This document shows, one piece after another, positions 1 to 43,602 of a stretch of DNA of 64,000 nucleotides (the first letter of the stretch is position 1; every line of letters begins with the position of its first letter). The notes beneath the pieces are model-generated. The model searched no databases. It saw only the letters and a program-made list of their open reading frames with translations, and had not been told where the DNA came from. Source of the DNA: Desulfurococcales archaeon (lineage in GTDB: Archaea; Thermoproteota; Thermoprotei_A; Sulfolobales; Desulfurococcaceae); the NCBI GenBank assembly GCA_027022365.1, contig JALVYU010000026.1, forward strand, positions 160,001 through 224,000, written 5' to 3'. A program made the position numbers and the translations under genes.

Positions 1-151
1 TTGATGCCTGTATCTCGGGCTTCGTGATAATCGTTATTCTTGACAGGTACGGGTTAACAACGCCGTAGTGTTTGATACTGCATGCTAGTTCGCATAGATG
101 GCATCCAGTACATTTCTCATAATCTACGGCTAGGATATACCTATGGGCCAT
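1..151 (-). CDS. 4Fe-4S dicluster protein (AOR small subunit/DmsB-like), runs off window edge
   Basis: Manual translation MAHRYILAVDYEKCTGCHLCELACSIKH with CxxCxxCxxxC; directly downstream of the AOR gene. Confidence 0.8.
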   Translation of the reverse strand, partial: MAHRYILAVDYEKCTGCHLCELACSIKHYGVVNPYLSRITIITKPEIQAS

Positions 152-156
152 CACGA

Positions 157-2100
157 TCACCTCCCACGCGGATACTTGTCCAGAGGCCATAGGGGTGGGC
201 CATCCCATTCTGGGAACTCCTTGTTCTCGATCTCGTCGGCAACCCACTCGATCCCCAGGTTTCTCAGCGTCTCTCTCTTCGGCACCGCGGTCTCTACGTC
301 ACACCCTCTCCTTTTAAGATACTCGTCGACCATCTCCCAGTGCCTCTTTATCTCGGCCTGTACCTTCGGCGTATTGATTATTTCTGGCGGGAACGGCACT
401 GCGTAGTGCTTCTTCTTGATGCCCTGCTTGACGTTGAACGCCATCTCGATCAGGTATATCCTGTCGGCAATCTCTACTAGCTTCTCCTCGGTGAACTCGT
501 AGCCTGTGGCGGCTGTCAGTAGCTTGGCTAGCCCCTTGAATAACGGGTACTTCCATACTAGTGGTACGGCCTGTGGCCAAGAGTTGATTGAGCCCTTACA
601 CCTACCGATGCTGTCGGCGAGTGTACAGGCGCGTTCGCTGACGATCAACGCTCCTACAGGGTCTTTCCTATAGTCTGGGAGGCCGCCCTCAAGGAGCTTT
701 AGGGGCAGCTCTGGATCCATGTTTCTGTCGTTCTCCCAGTATGCCCAGCTTCTTCCGCGCAGGTGGTCTGCTCCTCTCGTTGAGGTTGCATGTGCTAGTG
801 TGAAGATGCCGTTGAGAAAGTCTACGTGGTACCATCCTCTGCTTAGTCCTTTGACATCATAACTGTATTTGAGCGCTTCTGGGCCTATGATCTTGGCGAA
901 GTTCCTGTATCCTTCAGCCAGCTTGTTTCCGAAGCCCTCCCTGTATGCTATCATCTCTATGAGCTTGATCTGGGTCTCAGCATCGCCCCATTTCAGCGGT
1001 ATTCCGCCGGTGTCCGTGTCTGTTATTATTCCTTTCTCGTAAAGGAACTTGGCCATTGCAAGGGTGTCTCCGAGCGTGATCACATCCATGCCGTACTCGT
1101 CGGCCATCTGCTCCATCTTCAGTATAGCCTCAGTATCGGTTATCGCGTTGTTTGCTCCGAGCGCGTAGATCGACTCATACTCGCTCGATACTCCGTACTC
1201 GTTCCACCTAGGAAGCTTATAGACGTCCTTGCACGATACTGGGCAGCTGAAACACTGTGTCCTGCCTACCTCGTACTTGGCGAGGTCAACGGGCCTTATG
1301 CCCTCGGGCAGTTCTTCGGGGCCCAGGTATTTCTCGAAGTATTTCCAGCCGGGATACCATGCTAGTAGTCCGTAATGGGTCCCTATCACACTGTATATTT
1401 TCTTTACGAACTCGTTTTTCTTGAACCATTCTTCGTCCTCCTTGGCCAGCTTGAAGAAGGTCTCGGGATCAGCGATCTCGACGCCCTTGGTTCCCCTCAC
1501 TGCTATGGCTTTGAGGTTCTTAGAGCCCCAGACAGCGCCTGTTCCACGGGCTCCACTGTGGTACTTATCGATCATGGTGGTGGCGAATCTTACGAGGTGC
1601 TCGCCCGCCGGGCCTATGCCGGCCACAGCTATGTCGTCGCCATGGATGTCTCTCAGCGTGTCAACCATTTCGCTGACCTTTAATCCCCACAGATCACTTG
1701 CGTCCCTGATCTCCACCGTGTCGTCCTCGATCCAAATGTATTTAGGCTTGCTAGCTCTCCCGGTAATGACTATCTGGTCGTAGCCGGCATGCTTTAGGAT
1801 CGCTGAGAACTCGCCGCCAGCACTGCCGTCGCCTAGTATTCCTGATAAAGGCGATAGACTGCTTATCTCGGTCCTGCTTGTCATCGATAAGGCTGTGCCA
1901 GCCAACGCACCGTTAGCTAGACACAACACGTTCTCCGGGCTCAGCGGGTCTATTCCCGGCTTAACCATCTTGAATAACCTGTAGGAGTTAAGGCCTCTCC
2001 CGCCAAGATACATCTTGGCCTCTGTCTCGCTGAGAGGCTGTACTACGACTTTTTCCCTGGTTAAGTCGACATAGATTACTCTGCCTCCCCAACCATACAA
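157..2100 (-). CDS. aor: Tungsten-containing aldehyde:ferredoxin oxidoreductase family protein
   Basis: MYGWGGRVIYVDL start, YLGGRGL, IGPAGE, GSKNLKAIAV, CxxCxxxC, EYES, RGADH motifs. Confidence 0.9.
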   Translation of the reverse strand: MYGWGGRVIYVDLTREKVVVQPLSETEAKMYLGGRGLNSYRLFKMVKPGIDPLSPENVLCLANGALAGTALSMTSRTEISSLSPLSGILGDGSAGGEFSAILKHAGYDQIVITGRASKPKYIWIEDDTVEIRDASDLWGLKVSEMVDTLRDIHGDDIAVAGIGPAGEHLVRFATTMIDKYHSGARGTGAVWGSKNLKAIAVRGTKGVEIADPETFFKLAKEDEEWFKKNEFVKKIYSVIGTHYGLLAWYPGWKYFEKYLGPEELPEGIRPVDLAKYEVGRTQCFSCPVSCKDVYKLPRWNEYGVSSEYESIYALGANNAITDTEAILKMEQMADEYGMDVITLGDTLAMAKFLYEKGIITDTDTGGIPLKWGDAETQIKLIEMIAYREGFGNKLAEGYRNFAKIIGPEALKYSYDVKGLSRGWYHVDFLNGIFTLAHATSTRGADHLRGRSWAYWENDRNMDPELPLKLLEGGLPDYRKDPVGALIVSERACTLADSIGRCKGSINSWPQAVPLVWKYPLFKGLAKLLTAATGYEFTEEKLVEIADRIYLIEMAFNVKQGIKKKHYAVPFPPEIINTPKVQAEIKRHWEMVDEYLKRRGCDVETAVPKRETLRNLGIEWVADEIENKEFPEWDGPPLWPLDKYPRGR

Positions 2101-2402
2101 TTAGATCACCAGGACATGTTGTTCAAATAGAAAATGTAGGGTCCACGACGGATAATAAGCATTCCCCAATATTCTATCACAGAGTGTTTACTCTTCATAT
2201 AAGCAAAGCATTCCTTCCAACAAATAATATGTACAGCAAAAACAAACAAGATAGAATACTCTAATAAACACCGAGACAAAAACAAGATAAAATGAAGCAA
2301 TGACGAAGGAGTCACGAGACTGAACAAATGATGACCGGGCTATCAAGCCGAGCAAAAACACAGAAATAGGCAACAATACTATCACAAAATACACGGACAA
2401 CA

Positions 2403-40240: not shown

Positions 40241-40495
40241 CAATTATAGAACACATCAACCCCAACATGATATATTACCAGCATGATCCGAGTTATCACC
40301 GATACCATTGATACATGATTTTATATAGCCTGAACATGCCAGTAAAACAGCCATCTTATAAAAATCGCAATAAATATGAGCCACAAATACACATAGCATC
40401 AGCACATCTCGTTAATTTAATTCCCAGATAACACACCTATACAACTTATTAGAAGAAATGGTGGCGGGGCCCCCACAATGGTAGCGGGGGGTGGA

Positions 40496-41207
40496 TTCTC
40501 CCGGGGCGGCTGTCCGCAGAGTCTTATTCGCTATATGTAATGAGTATTATTGACCCTTTTAAAACTTACTACAAATCTTAGTCAAAGCCCTTTTCTCAGC
40601 TTGATGATGAATATCCATGATGTTATATAGATTGCATACGTTATCTTTTCTACTAATAACTAATCTATAAAATCCCCAGGTCTCGCCATAATTATATCTT
40701 AGAATCTATGCTGATTTTCCTAAGCATTTTGAATATCTAACACTCCGTAATAGTTCACAGAATTGATGATAACTCTATGTTTTTGTTTATCAATATGTCC
40801 TTCATCTATAAATGCTGAGATCCAATTAATGAGTATATTGGGACTTTTTCTTATGAATGCCTGTGCTCTCCATAATTTTTGAATTATTTGCACCTAAACG
40901 TCTAAGTGTGTAGTAAAGATATCTTGATTTAACTCTTGCTATATAGACGTGTTTTTGGATGAATATACAATAGTCGGGCTTATCTTCAAAACATCATATA
41001 TGTCTCTGGCAAATGAACTAATTAGTTCAATTGATTTATTAATATATTCTATAATGTAACGTTTTCCTCTATCTCCTTTCTCGACATATATATGTCCATC
41101 TCCGCAAATATGTGCATGAATCCTTGCAAAATAAGGATTATCCATTAAGGACATGTTATTCCCGTTTTAGATAGAATAGGAGAATATAAAGCGGACAGCC
41201 GCCCCGT
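40496..41207 (-). mobile_element. 712-nt intervening sequence at tRNA position 59/60 carrying a decayed LAGLIDADG gene
   Basis: Perfect 16-bp terminal complementarity 40502-40517/41191-41206; central helix TTCA/GGAG with 3-nt bulges. Confidence 0.82.
40559..41154 (-). pseudogene. Frameshifted two-motif LAGLIDADG homing endonuclease
   Basis: IHAHICGDG in the first frame, WISAFIDEGHI after a frameshift near 40950, YRLVISRKDNV tail after further breaks. Confidence 0.75.
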
Positions 41208-41229
41208 TTTGAACCACCGACCTCGGGGT

Positions 41230-41250
41230 GTCCCTGAGGCGGCAGCCTCT
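41230..41250 (-). other. 21-nt canonical tRNA intron at 37/38
   Basis: A GAGGC TGCC GCCTC AGGG AC hairpin with relaxed BHB. Confidence 0.88.
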
Positions 41251-41307
41251 TATGAGCTTCGCGGGGCGGGGCTACCGTCCCTGCTACTACCTTTATTATT
41301 GGGGGTC

Positions 41308-41481
41308 TTATAAAGTTTTATTCTTAGGTGTTATGAGTAAGCCTTTTCTTTTATTGTTAATATAAATTTCGACACTAAGTTCTATCCCTTCTTTCCAGCC
41401 TAAGGCTTCAACTAATTGTTTTGGTAGTGTTATTTCATAGGTGTAATATTTTTGTTTACCTTTCCTCTTTCTAAGTTTCAT
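41308..41481 (-). CDS. AbrB/MazE/SpoVT-family DNA-binding protein (57 aa, not in ORF track)
   Basis: MKLRKRKGKQKYYTYEITLPKQLVEALGWKEGIELSVEIYINNKRKGLLITPKNKTL; GGTGA RBS upstream. Confidence 0.8.
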   Translation of the reverse strand: MKLRKRKGKQKYYTYEITLPKQLVEALGWKEGIELSVEIYINNKRKGLLITPKNKTL

Positions 41482-41564
41482 TATTTCACCAAGAAATACT
41501 ATATAATCGTAGATAATAAATTTATATAGGAATTCTTTACAGAATTCCTAACAGAGGTGAAGAA

Positions 41565-42644
41565 ATGAAGCAGTCTATGGGTAATATTATCGCAAATTTG
41601 CTGGAAAATTATGGATCAAACTATCTTAATAAATGGAAATCAAGAGAACATTTACTGGGTAGAAGAAAGTTTTTGGTATATAATGTCGATGAACAAATAA
41701 AGTCAGAAATTCTATTTCTTCTTTATAAAGAACTTCACAACATAAAAACAACTACCTTTAAAGAAGTAAAGTTCTTGAGTAAGTGCTTAGTAATTAGGTC
41801 AACGCATGAGGCCCCGCTATGGTATAGATTAGGCTTAGCATTAAGCGATGGCTCTGTCCTAGGTAAAAGTAATATAATATTCTCTACATCAAAACCACAC
41901 ACAATAGATGCCGTGATGTATGGATTTAGTTATATAAAGATCTACGTAGCTAGATACATGCTAAGTATAAAAACTAACAAGATAATACCTGTTATTAACA
42001 TCGTAGTGAAGGATCCGGATACTGCATTACTTCTAAGACGTATTAAAGAAAACAAACTAGATACGGATCAATTTATAGATGCACTAGTTAATGATAGAAT
42101 GGCGTTGGCACAATTCCTAGCTGGGATAATAGATGGTGATGGAAGTATAGATTGTGATAATATAAGAATATGCATTGATAAACGTGATCCTCTATACACG
42201 ATTTTACAAAAAATCTTTAGAAATAATTTGGTTTATGATGAAAAACGATATATGTTAAGGATAAAAACACGAGCCGTTAGGGAACTAAGCATTTTAGAAG
42301 AACTAATAAATAACATAGTCTCGGAACATAAGAAAACTATGATTAAAAGAATCCTGAGAAAAAGAAAAAGATTCGTTCTAAACAACATCACATTAACAAA
42401 TTATAAAATTAAAGAAATCCTAGACAAACTTGATAATGATGATCTAAAAACACTTACCTTATTTAAATTTAGAAAAAAGCAAAAATATACCTATGCATAC
42501 ATCTCCTTTAACAAAAAGAATAAAAACTATATATTCAGCTTAATTAACAAGCTACTCTATAAAATAGAATCCGTACTTTTCTTAAACCTCCTCGATTCTG
42601 TTAAGGAAGGTAACAGAGAATATGTAATTTATAACAAAGAATAG
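41565..42644 (+). CDS. Two-motif LAGLIDADG homing endonuclease-like protein
   Basis: LGLALSDGS and LAGIIDGDGS motifs; GAGGTGA RBS; TTTATATA at 41521; Lys-rich, low GC. Confidence 0.82.
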   Translation: MKQSMGNIIANLLENYGSNYLNKWKSREHLLGRRKFLVYNVDEQIKSEILFLLYKELHNIKTTTFKEVKFLSKCLVIRSTHEAPLWYRLGLALSDGSVLGKSNIIFSTSKPHTIDAVMYGFSYIKIYVARYMLSIKTNKIIPVINIVVKDPDTALLLRRIKENKLDTDQFIDALVNDRMALAQFLAGIIDGDGSIDCDNIRICIDKRDPLYTILQKIFRNNLVYDEKRYMLRIKTRAVRELSILEELINNIVSEHKKTMIKRILRKRKRFVLNNITLTNYKIKEILDKLDNDDLKTLTLFKFRKKQKYTYAYISFNKKNKNYIFSLINKLLYKIESVLFLNLLDSVKEGNREYVIYNKE

Positions 42645-42855
42645 TAGAACTTATCAAAACACTTAGAATATATATTGAGATGGGGAAGGGACGGTAGCCC
42701 CTGCACCTCCCGCGGGCTACCTGGCTGCCCTACCCCGCTGTTTTGCCCCGCCGTATTGTTTGTGGTGTTTTTCGGTGGTTATAAGGTTTTCTGGGCTTTT
42801 CTTCTTGTTGTGTTGTTTCTTTCTAGGAGGAGGGAGAGGGGAGGGGAAAAAGGAG

Positions 42856-43602
42856 TTATTTTAGCTGGTTTAGCGGTGTGTATGTTTTTGCCGGTATGTA
42901 TGGTAGGATGTGGCGGGTTGTTTTTGGGCTGTATACTTTTCCTTGCCTAGCTATTTCTATTACTTCTTGTTTTGTCGGTGGTTTTCTCAGAAACAGGTAG
43001 TCGATCTCTCCTTTTTCGAGGTCTTGTATTGCTTCTTCGCGTAAGCCGTAATAGGCGAGCTTTATTTTTCCCTCGACGTTAAGCTTGTTTAGGATCTTTG
43101 ATACTTTCTTTTGTTCTTCTACGCCTCCCTTTATGATCCATGCTCTACCGTCTCGAGACAATATTATGAAGGCTATACCTCCCTGCTCCAATAGTTTTAT
43201 CGCTTGCTCCGCATCGAGCTTGGACTCGTTTATATCTAGTTCTTTAGACGCTTCTCGCAGGAAGTCATCGATACTACCTATAATAGCGGGATACCATGTC
43301 TCGAGCCTGATACTATCGTCAAAGTAATCTACGACGATCGCTGGTGCTTTGCGATACCCCAGCTCTTTTAGAGCAGCCCAACGATGATGTCCATCAACAA
43401 TCAAGTACTTATCAGTCCCCGGTATAGGGGCAACTATGATGGGCATATCCACAGCGCCCAAGTCCATGATCATCTTCTTTACATCCTCAAGGCGCTTAGT
43501 AACAATCTCCTCGTGCGGCACCATATTATCAACATCGATCAGAACTGGCTCAACCCGCTTAACCGGTATATTTAGCTTCGGCAGCTTTATGATCACTGAC
43601 AC
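42856..43602 (-). CDS. serK: Free serine kinase SerK (ParB/Srx fold)
   Basis: PHEE, DGHHRWAAL, TWYP, SPKTTRH; clustered with a SerA-like gene and an aminotransferase. Confidence 0.78.
   Translation of the reverse strand: MSVIIKLPKLNIPVKRVEPVLIDVDNMVPHEEIVTKRLEDVKKMIMDLGAVDMPIIVAPIPGTDKYLIVDGHHRWAALKELGYRKAPAIVVDYFDDSIRLETWYPAIIGSIDDFLREASKELDINESKLDAEQAIKLLEQGGIAFIILSRDGRAWIIKGGVEEQKKVSKILNKLNVEGKIKLAYYGLREEAIQDLEKGEIDYLFLRKPPTKQEVIEIARQGKVYSPKTTRHILPYIPAKTYTPLNQLK

Follow-up and report, generated by a model that had tools for sequence, protein, structure and literature searches.

A probable mobile intron carrying an antisense LAGLIDADG endonuclease gene and a divergent AbrB-type gene in the initiator tRNA gene of a Desulfurococcales archaeon

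Introduction

The closest described relatives of the element reported here are the bulge-helix-bulge (BHB) introns of crenarchaeal rRNA genes. These introns are spliced by proteins, interrupt a highly conserved stable-RNA gene, encode a double-motif LAGLIDADG enzyme whose coding end overlaps the structural stem of the intron, and are sporadically distributed. I-DmoI, which we take to be the enzyme of the 23S rRNA intron of Desulfurococcus mobilis, belongs to this group, as presumably do its rRNA-intron relatives I-Tsp061I, I-PorI, and I-ApeI. Here we analyze a 64,000-nucleotide (nt) stretch of the genome of a Desulfurococcales archaeon (assembly GCA_027022365.1, contig JALVYU010000026.1, positions 160,001 to 224,000; hereafter the window), in which a 1,451-nt insert at 41258-42708 interrupts a minus-strand tRNA-Met(CAT) gene between tRNA positions 30 and 31 (30/31). 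The insert carries an open reading frame (ORF) for a LAGLIDADG endonuclease, here called LAG1, and a small divergent gene of the SpoVT/AbrB type. It resembles the rRNA introns in each of the respects listed above, protein splicing being predicted. It differs from them in its host, a tRNA gene interrupted at a noncanonical site, and in the orientation of LAG1, which lies antisense to the host RNA behind an apparent promoter of its own and for that reason would not be translatable from the excised intron. I-DmoI is also about half as large as LAG1, which has additional alpha-beta-beta-alpha-beta-beta units at both its N and C termini, and the intron carries the AbrB-type gene in addition. The novelty of the locus relative to the rRNA BHB introns is this combination of a tRNA host, the 30/31 site, an antisense and self-promoted endonuclease gene, and a conserved companion gene.

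Two other kinds of intron offer partial parallels. Antisense homing endonuclease genes are known in some nuclear rDNA group I introns, where, as here, a gene on the strand opposite the host RNA amounts to an independent mobile gene; those introns are eukaryotic ribozymes in which no companion regulator is known. In cyanobacteria, the initiator tRNA-fMet gene contains a group I intron that presumably carries I-Ssp6803I. It is likewise mobile, with its own homing endonuclease, in an initiator tRNA, but it is a bacterial, self-splicing ribozyme with a PD-(D/E)XK enzyme, whereas the window intron has no group I signal and would depend on the host splicing endonuclease, EndA. The study of this group I intron by Biniszkiewicz et al. 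(1994) is cited in an account that also treats archaeal tRNA introns (PMC3218864).

In archaeal tRNA genes, 30/31 and 59/60 are known hot spots of noncanonical introns in Thermoproteales, Desulfurococcales, and DPANN, and both relaxed BHB motifs and up to three introns per gene have been described (PMC3218864, PMC4090602). The same sources report that the tRNA-Lys genes of Staphylothermus and Nanoarchaeum are split at 30/31 and that leader and trailer pair in split forms. As far as the accessible text of such papers goes, published archaeal tRNA introns are short and noncoding, whereas two of the three introns in the tRNA gene studied here are 0.7 to 1.45 kb long and contain endonuclease genes. 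The review PMC4090602 uses none of the terms "homing," "ORF," or "open reading frame." There is no account of an archaeal tRNA BHB intron that encodes an endonuclease in the available parts of the literature consulted, which includes PMC3218864, PMC4090602, PMC4496867, PMC6125680, PMC3082918, PMC10714607, and bioRxiv 10.64898/2026.10.13.758758, although the intron lists in the supplements of the surveys may hold long introns. The multiplication of archaeal tRNA introns and the origin of split tRNAs are long-standing questions, and the reviews, in the portions accessible, give no mechanism of mobility. The locus described here offers a concrete candidate mechanism, in which a tRNA intron spliced by proteins, located at the intron and split hot spot 30/31 of an essential single-copy gene, encodes a homing endonuclease.

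Results and discussion

The tRNA gene lies on the minus strand from 42739 to 40479, divided into four pieces. Exon 1 (42709-42739) supplies positions 1 to 30 with one extra D-loop base and matches bases 1 to 31 of the spliced tRNA at 100%. The large insert (intron 1, 41258-42708) is followed by exon 2 (41251-41257, GCTCATA, positions 31 to 37), a canonical 37/38 intron of 21 nt (intron 2, 41230-41250) that ARAGORN recognizes by itself, exon 3 (41208-41229, positions 38 to 59), a 712-nt intron at 59/60 (intron 3, 40496-41207) with a 16-bp stem (41191-41206 paired with 40502-40517), and exon 4 (40479-40495, positions 60 to 76), in which the CCA end is encoded. The native, unspliced gene was missed by both ARAGORN and Rfam. 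Once a script had removed 42708-41258 and 41207-40496, with the cuts placed according to the BHB reading described below, ARAGORN returned a perfect cloverleaf for a tRNA-Met(CAT) with the canonical 21-nt intron, and the T loop read TTCAAAT. The spliced tRNA begins with an A1:U72 pair, and its anticodon stem ends in three G:C pairs; both features are marks of an archaeal initiator tRNA.

The assembly comprises 1.74 Mb in 44 contigs and is 99.97% complete. Throughout it, ARAGORN found just two other tRNA-Met genes, both starting with G1 and elongator-like, and no second initiator-like tRNA; a BLAST search of the assembly with the spliced tRNA returned no further copies of the exons. Since it is the sole initiator-like tRNA gene in so complete an assembly, and its exons have no other copies there, the interrupted gene must work.

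To place the splice junctions, we used a rule taken from the gene's own canonical intron: a 4-bp helix and 3-nt bulges, with the cut after the second base of each bulge. The 59/60 intron conforms to this strict layout, having the T stem as outer helix, TTCA/GGAG with three of four pairs formed, and the bulges AA-A and AA-T (the hyphen marks the cut). In intron 1, CGCG at tRNA positions 25 to 28 pairs with CGCG just 5' of the 3' splice site to give the central helix, the bulges are GG-A and AA-G, and a long inner stem joins 42687-42701 (5' arm) to 41268-41282 (3' arm) over 15 nt with 100% complementarity. We call this motif relaxed because no convincing outer helix could be written for it. Perfect inverted repeats thus close both large inserts, 15 nt in intron 1 and 16 nt in intron 3, and intron 1 has about 28% G+C compared with about 45% in the surrounding DNA. 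When the junctions of homologous introns were co-folded, five of six (that of the window, W, and those of four other lineages, L006, L019, L020, and L022) adopted a common layout at -50 to -56 kcal/mol with stems of differing sequence; the sixth, L023, folded otherwise though its stem arms are complementary, and L007 was left out of the comparison since its 3' junction had been mis-extracted. Stem sequences that differ and still pair indicate compensatory change. The host genome encodes two EndA paralogues that match PF01974 above its cut-off, which presumably fits the two-subunit splicing enzyme of crenarchaea. We infer from these features that intron 1 is a protein-spliced BHB intron. A group I or group II intron was also considered and was rejected, as the sequence gave no match at the gathering threshold or at an E value of ≤1.

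If the insert were not spliced, the tRNA gene would be broken, and initiation would fall to another tRNA or to an unassembled copy. The relaxed BHB leaves some room for this, as do the reading of splicing from DNA and the 44 contigs of the assembly. Yet neither another initiator-like tRNA nor another exon copy was found at 99.97% completeness, the exons show perfect conservation and fit together exactly, and the interrupted arrangement occurs in 12 genomes with compensatory changes in the stem, while none of the six genomes of the genus has an uninterrupted junction. A broken gene is highly improbable.

LAG1 (41565-42644, plus strand) encodes 359 amino acids (aa) and is preceded, 4 nt before its ATG, by the Shine-Dalgarno-like sequence GAGGTGA (41554-41560). 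The frame stays open within DNA of about 28% G+C and has homologues at E values of 1e-57 to 1e-174. It contains the two motifs LGLALSDGS and LAGIIDGDGS, and the catalytic aspartates D95 and D192 are invariant in all nine aligned sequences. An AlphaFold model built from this nine-sequence alignment had a pLDDT of 89. Foldseek and VIA-align comparison of its core (residues 81 to 267) gave PI-SceI (Z 10.6), E-DreI (10.2), I-Tsp061I (9.6), and I-DmoI (about 9), and each of the 50 best rows for this core was a LAGLIDADG-fold protein. The structures matched include 2vs8/1b24 and 2dch, which belong to enzymes of the I-DmoI/I-Tsp061I type. As judged from the model, LAG1 is a LAGLIDADG enzyme of the pseudodimeric fold, and the two-motif identity proposed in an earlier note, made from the letters of the window, agrees with both the fold match and the conserved aspartates. 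In the model, the N-terminal 80 and the C-terminal 70 residues each follow an alpha-beta-beta-alpha-beta-beta order. Modeled alone, the C-terminal part found its best match, a weak one, in the N-terminal half of I-DmoI (Z 6.2), and it models as a third LAGLIDADG-like unit of this kind. The family combines a thermophilic origin and an unusual four-unit architecture with a likely target sequence that is conserved across archaea.

The window protein stops about 20 residues short of its homologues through a 1-nt frameshift. The next 63 nt in the +1 frame (42635-42697) read QRIVELIKTLRIYIEMGKGR followed by a stop codon, which is the tail that the homologues carry, and the TAG (42695-42697) falls within the intron stem; the homologues end in ...GR, with their TAG likewise inside the stem. 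Contigs from metagenome runs X4 and X13, which belong to two other studies, have one extra T after 42634, and this brings the tail back into frame. The earlier note had also drawn attention to a likeness between RKKQKYTYAYI in the C-terminal extension of LAG1 and KGKQKYYTYEI near the N terminus of the AbrB-type protein. Both strings are present letter for letter, but their resemblance does not exceed chance (BLASTP E value, 5.8; hhalign probability, 3%), and no AbrB fold occurs among the best 50 structure rows for the C-terminal part of LAG1. We rejected kinship between the two proteins in this region.

LAG1 belongs to a rare family. A profile search of 1.84 billion representative proteins returned 51 matches at an E value of ≤1e-3 and 19 at ≤1e-30. 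Within the host order, relatives occur in 12 of 325 genomes and 9 of 97 genera (E ≤ 1e-10), and eight more close loci in the GTDB collection all come from uncultured Desulfurococcales or Thermoprotei bins. Wherever the sequence extends to that end of the intron, which is so for 11 of the 12 loci, initiator exon 1 adjoins LAG1 and is encoded on the other strand; the remaining locus, L024 (G002), spans the 3' exon only. The frame is open in seven genomes (G003, G020, G038, G047, G129, G143, and G208) and damaged in the other five of the 12 copies (G000, the genome of the window, and G005, G002, G199, and G227). An uninterrupted 30/31 junction, the likely target of the endonuclease as judged from its sequence, was found in 199 of the 325 genomes. 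None of the six genomes of the window's genus had it, and of the 12 genomes with LAG1 a single one did, G143, in which contamination is 7% and the match is on a small contig. In the LAG1 protein tree, which departs from host taxonomy, G000 clusters (support, 100/99) with G020, a genome of another genus, and G003, of the same genus as G000, falls in another clade. A conserved target, patchy distribution, decay, and incongruence make up the usual signature of a homing element, and the sequences compared here are consistent with it. The view of the earlier note that the cassette is mobile and sits in a spliceable tRNA intron gains from the exact removal in silico, the homologues at the same 30/31 site, and the patchy and decayed copies.

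The second gene of the insert (41308-41481, minus strand) is sense to the tRNA and divergent from LAG1. Its 57-aa product matches Pfam PF04014 over residues 17 to 55 with 28.9 bits (cut-off, 24.7), in line with the AbrB/SpoVT identity first suggested, and ends 2 residues past the domain. An exact-word protein search returned two candidates, P0007 and P0008, both bearing a precomputed PF04014 label. Close relatives occur in G004, G005, G047, three metagenome contigs, and, as P0008, on a 951-nt contig. All seven genes of at least 58% identity whose DNA context can be read, the window's included (G000, G004, G005, G047, L074, L075, and L076), lie in the 30/31 intron of the initiator tRNA, placed between LAG1 and exon 2 and divergent from LAG1. 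On L075 and L076, ARAGORN itself calls a tRNA-Met with an intron of 1,455 to 1,457 nt. The carriers form three lineages of about 60% mutual identity. Between G000 and G047, the synonymous difference (pS) is 0.93, so that these sites are saturated, and the nonsynonymous difference (pN) is 0.24; the AbrB gene is therefore real and under purifying selection. It is intact in G000, G004, and G005, while both neighboring endonuclease genes decay. A search of the Protein Data Bank with the AbrB profile gave no match at an E value of ≤1.

The gene might nevertheless be a passenger that came from a tRNA-targeting integrative element and uses the intron as a safe haven, with no control over LAG1. Distant relatives of the AbrB protein (E values of 1e-15 to 5e-7) are present in 21 other genomes of the order. 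Among 16 such loci fetched (L034, L035, L036, L038, and 12 others), 10 have an ordinary tRNA gene within about 3 kb, often within about 1.5 kb, and some have as neighbors ORFs of the ribbon-helix-helix type and integrase-like ORFs that extend into the tRNA, which suggests that the distant loci are integrated elements. Such an origin would also suit the majority of LAG1 introns that have no AbrB gene. It fits less well with the seven of seven close relatives that sit in this one intron in the same place and orientation beside LAG1, with a protein kept by selection while synonymous sites became saturated, and with a rare DNA motif over the LAG1 start that co-occurs with the gene (see below). Searched with the AbrB profile, viral contigs yielded no match. 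We consider a passenger unlikely and favor a role of the AbrB protein in repressing LAG1.

Repression is favored over both a passenger and an antitoxin role because a rare dyad lies over the predicted start of LAG1 transcription. The two genes are separated by a divergent control region of 83 nt (41482-41564). Read toward LAG1, it contains the TATA-like box TTTATATA (41521-41528), an adjoining perfect palindrome of 10+4+10 nt, GAGGTGA, and the LAG1 ATG. The box would be usable in both directions, and its A/T block is conserved in G047. Annotated at 41528-41549, the dyad AGGAATTCT-TTAC-AGAATTCCT, whose 10-nt arms match at 100%, is a candidate operator. In the three AbrB-bearing lineages, the spacers have in common the sequence surrounding the TATA box as well as a looser dyad, AGRAAT-N8-10-ATTYCT. 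This motif occurs twice in the 1,742,253 bases of the genome; it is present in six of six AbrB-bearing spacers and in none of nine introns at loci that lack AbrB. (The G004 contig starts inside the spacer and was not counted, and one match in L007 lies outside the intron.) Archaeal TATA boxes are found about 26 nt upstream of the transcript start. With that spacing, the dyad covers the predicted start of LAG1, and an operator over the transcript start is usually where archaeal repressors act. Whether the AbrB protein represses LAG1 through the dyad is, on these sequence grounds, an evenly balanced question. The positions first proposed for both ORFs, the 83-nt spacer, the TATA box at 41521, and the ribosome-binding site were all borne out.

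A parallel exists in the controller (C) proteins of restriction-modification systems and in phage repressors, small DNA-binding proteins whose gene adjoins that of a nuclease and whose operator covers the promoter of the nuclease. The analogy is functional and concerns delayed or zygotic-type expression on entry. C proteins have a helix-turn-helix rather than the swapped-hairpin SpoVT/AbrB fold and come from another domain of life, and regulation at the present locus is predicted from sequence.

The earlier note had left open whether the AbrB protein is a controller or an antitoxin. As an antitoxin-like inhibitor, it would bind and neutralize LAG1 directly, as MazE and VapB do with their toxins. 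PF04014 is named after MazE-type antitoxins, and the two genes are adjacent and co-inherited. Against these points, the genes diverge across 83 nt and do not form one operon, and the Pfam match at residues 17 to 55 of 57 leaves no C-terminal toxin-binding extension. The partner is a LAGLIDADG enzyme and not a PIN, MazF, or other known toxin, LAG1 homologues in most lineages do without the AbrB gene, and the supposed shared motif is not significant. A complex prediction for LAG1 with two AbrB chains scored 0.00 and gives no verdict either way. An antitoxin is thus improbable, and that half of the earlier proposal is not supported. The controller half is plausible, given the selection on the AbrB gene, its travel with this intron only, and its co-occurrence with the rare dyad.

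Taken together, the locus is likely to be a mobile BHB intron that is lodged in the sole initiator tRNA gene of its host and encodes, besides a free-standing homing endonuclease in antisense orientation, a probable repressor. At the RNA level the intron would be harmless: the host splicing endonuclease would cut the relaxed BHB, which exon bases 25 to 28 and the 3' end of the intron build together with the long intron stem, and the exons would be ligated. At the DNA level it would spread, or would once have spread, by homing, with LAG1 cutting the conserved intronless allele and repair copying the intron in. LAG1 would be transcribed from its own promoter, antisense to the tRNA, and would run head-on into the promoter of an essential tRNA gene. 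Most probably the AbrB protein binds the dyad at 41528-41549, which has the shared TATA box on one side and the LAG1 start on the other. Bound there, it would silence LAG1 in cells where the intron is already present; in a naive cell, a burst of LAG1 expression could occur before the repressor accumulates. In G000 the element is past its active phase, with LAG1 frameshifted, the endonuclease gene of the second intron a pseudogene, and AbrB intact.

Several observations weigh against this reading. Splicing and promoter use are predicted from DNA, and all 14 sequencing runs listed as containing the stretch are DNA metagenomes. The BHB of intron 1 is relaxed, its outer exon-exon helix being weak or absent. 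LAG1 is truncated in the window copy, and the window protein scores 20.7 bits against Pfam LAGLIDADG_3, under the cut-off of 22.5; eight of nine family members match Pfam at an E value of ≤0.01. The AbrB gene is absent from 7 of the 12 genomes that carry LAG1, and as most LAG1 introns lack it, the element can dispense with it. The lineages that bear it are not sisters in the LAG1 tree, so the gene has been repeatedly lost or moved. The dyad motif was defined after three spacers had been seen, which makes its presence there partly a matter of construction, and the independent points are its rarity and its absence from AbrB-less introns only. The perfect 10-nt palindrome is confined to the window's own lineage; we rejected it as a conserved operator, the looser dyad alone being shared.

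LAG1 is not the only endonuclease gene in the tRNA introns of this genome. The 59/60 intron contains lag3 (40559-41154, minus strand), a LAGLIDADG pseudogene on the sense strand that differs by five indels from an intact 200-aa ORF in G004. Intact forms of lag3 are those of G004 (200 aa, L031:393-992; Pfam, 34 bits) and G038 (218 aa, L008:1401-2054; 51.5 bits), and indel variants occur in runs X4 and X13. In run X3, the 59/60 stem closes over 13 to 18 nt only, which amounts to an endonuclease-free mini-intron. Outside the window, the tRNA-Phe(GAA) gene (G000:C26:324429-325169, also L073) has a 666-nt intron near positions 30 to 32 that contains, in sense orientation, a LAGLIDADG_2 ORF whose second motif is broken by a stop codon. 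With lag3, LAG1, and the tRNA-Phe ORF, the genome therefore has at least three tRNA introns that bear an endonuclease gene.

In three genomes of one related family (G038, G208, and G227), the initiator tRNA is split at 30/31, its halves lie on opposite strands, and LAG1 stands between them. The halves are at 984-1015 (plus strand) and 2208-2277 (minus) in G208 (L021), at 33-64 (plus) and 1296-2116 (minus) in G038 (L018), and at 2186-2216 (minus) and 1103-1148 (plus) in G227 (L025). The flanks of the halves pair at -43 to -50 kcal/mol in co-folding, with compensatory differences, and A/T-rich, TATA-like boxes resembling promoters precede the 3' halves. No uninterrupted 30/31 junction was found in these genomes, and the LAG1 tree places G038 and G208 as sisters. 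From its sequence, the split gene looks like a derivative of the endonuclease-bearing intron. The one order would then show every stage: the empty site, the intact element, the decaying element, the mini-intron, and the split gene.

A wider proposal is that the element is a regulated homing system of a so far undescribed kind, in which an antisense endonuclease with its own AbrB repressor and operator fires only on arrival in a naive cell and is kept silent wherever its transcript would run against the one essential initiator tRNA gene, and that such introns are also an engine of tRNA-intron spread and the direct precursors of split genes. We advance it tentatively, as more doubtful than the mobile intron itself. 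If it is true, the AbrB protein and its dyad would make this a rare homing element that carries its own regulator, and endonuclease-bearing introns would supply the driving force so far missing from accounts of how archaeal tRNA introns spread, as well as the direct precursors of split tRNAs; the three related genomes support the split-gene part.

Several minor features surround the tRNA gene. TTATAA at 42779-42784 (minus strand), about 40 to 45 nt before tRNA base 1, is a candidate TATA box for its promoter, judging from sequence. On the minus strand, the 5' leader GGCGGGGC (42745-42752) could pair with the 3' trailer ...GGGGGCCCCGCCACCA (40459-40475), which resembles the tRNA's own 3' end (CCCCGC-ACCA) and is kept downstream of the tRNA in G047, G003, G143, and G129. 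This element may form a stem used in processing, or it may be the relic of a copied 3' exon. In G003, the strand opposite the initiator tRNA gene carries a further LAGLIDADG_3 gene of 292 aa (L007, 409-1287, plus strand; 40.4 bits), which directly adjoins the 3' end of the tRNA gene and whose frame extends across the conserved trailer; the window has no such gene at that place. The gene upstream of the tRNA (42856-43602, minus strand) encodes an L-serine kinase of the SerK type (Pfam SerK_C, 116.5 bits) whose N domain is ParB-like; G003 and G020 have this neighbor too, which makes the tRNA locus syntenic among these genomes.

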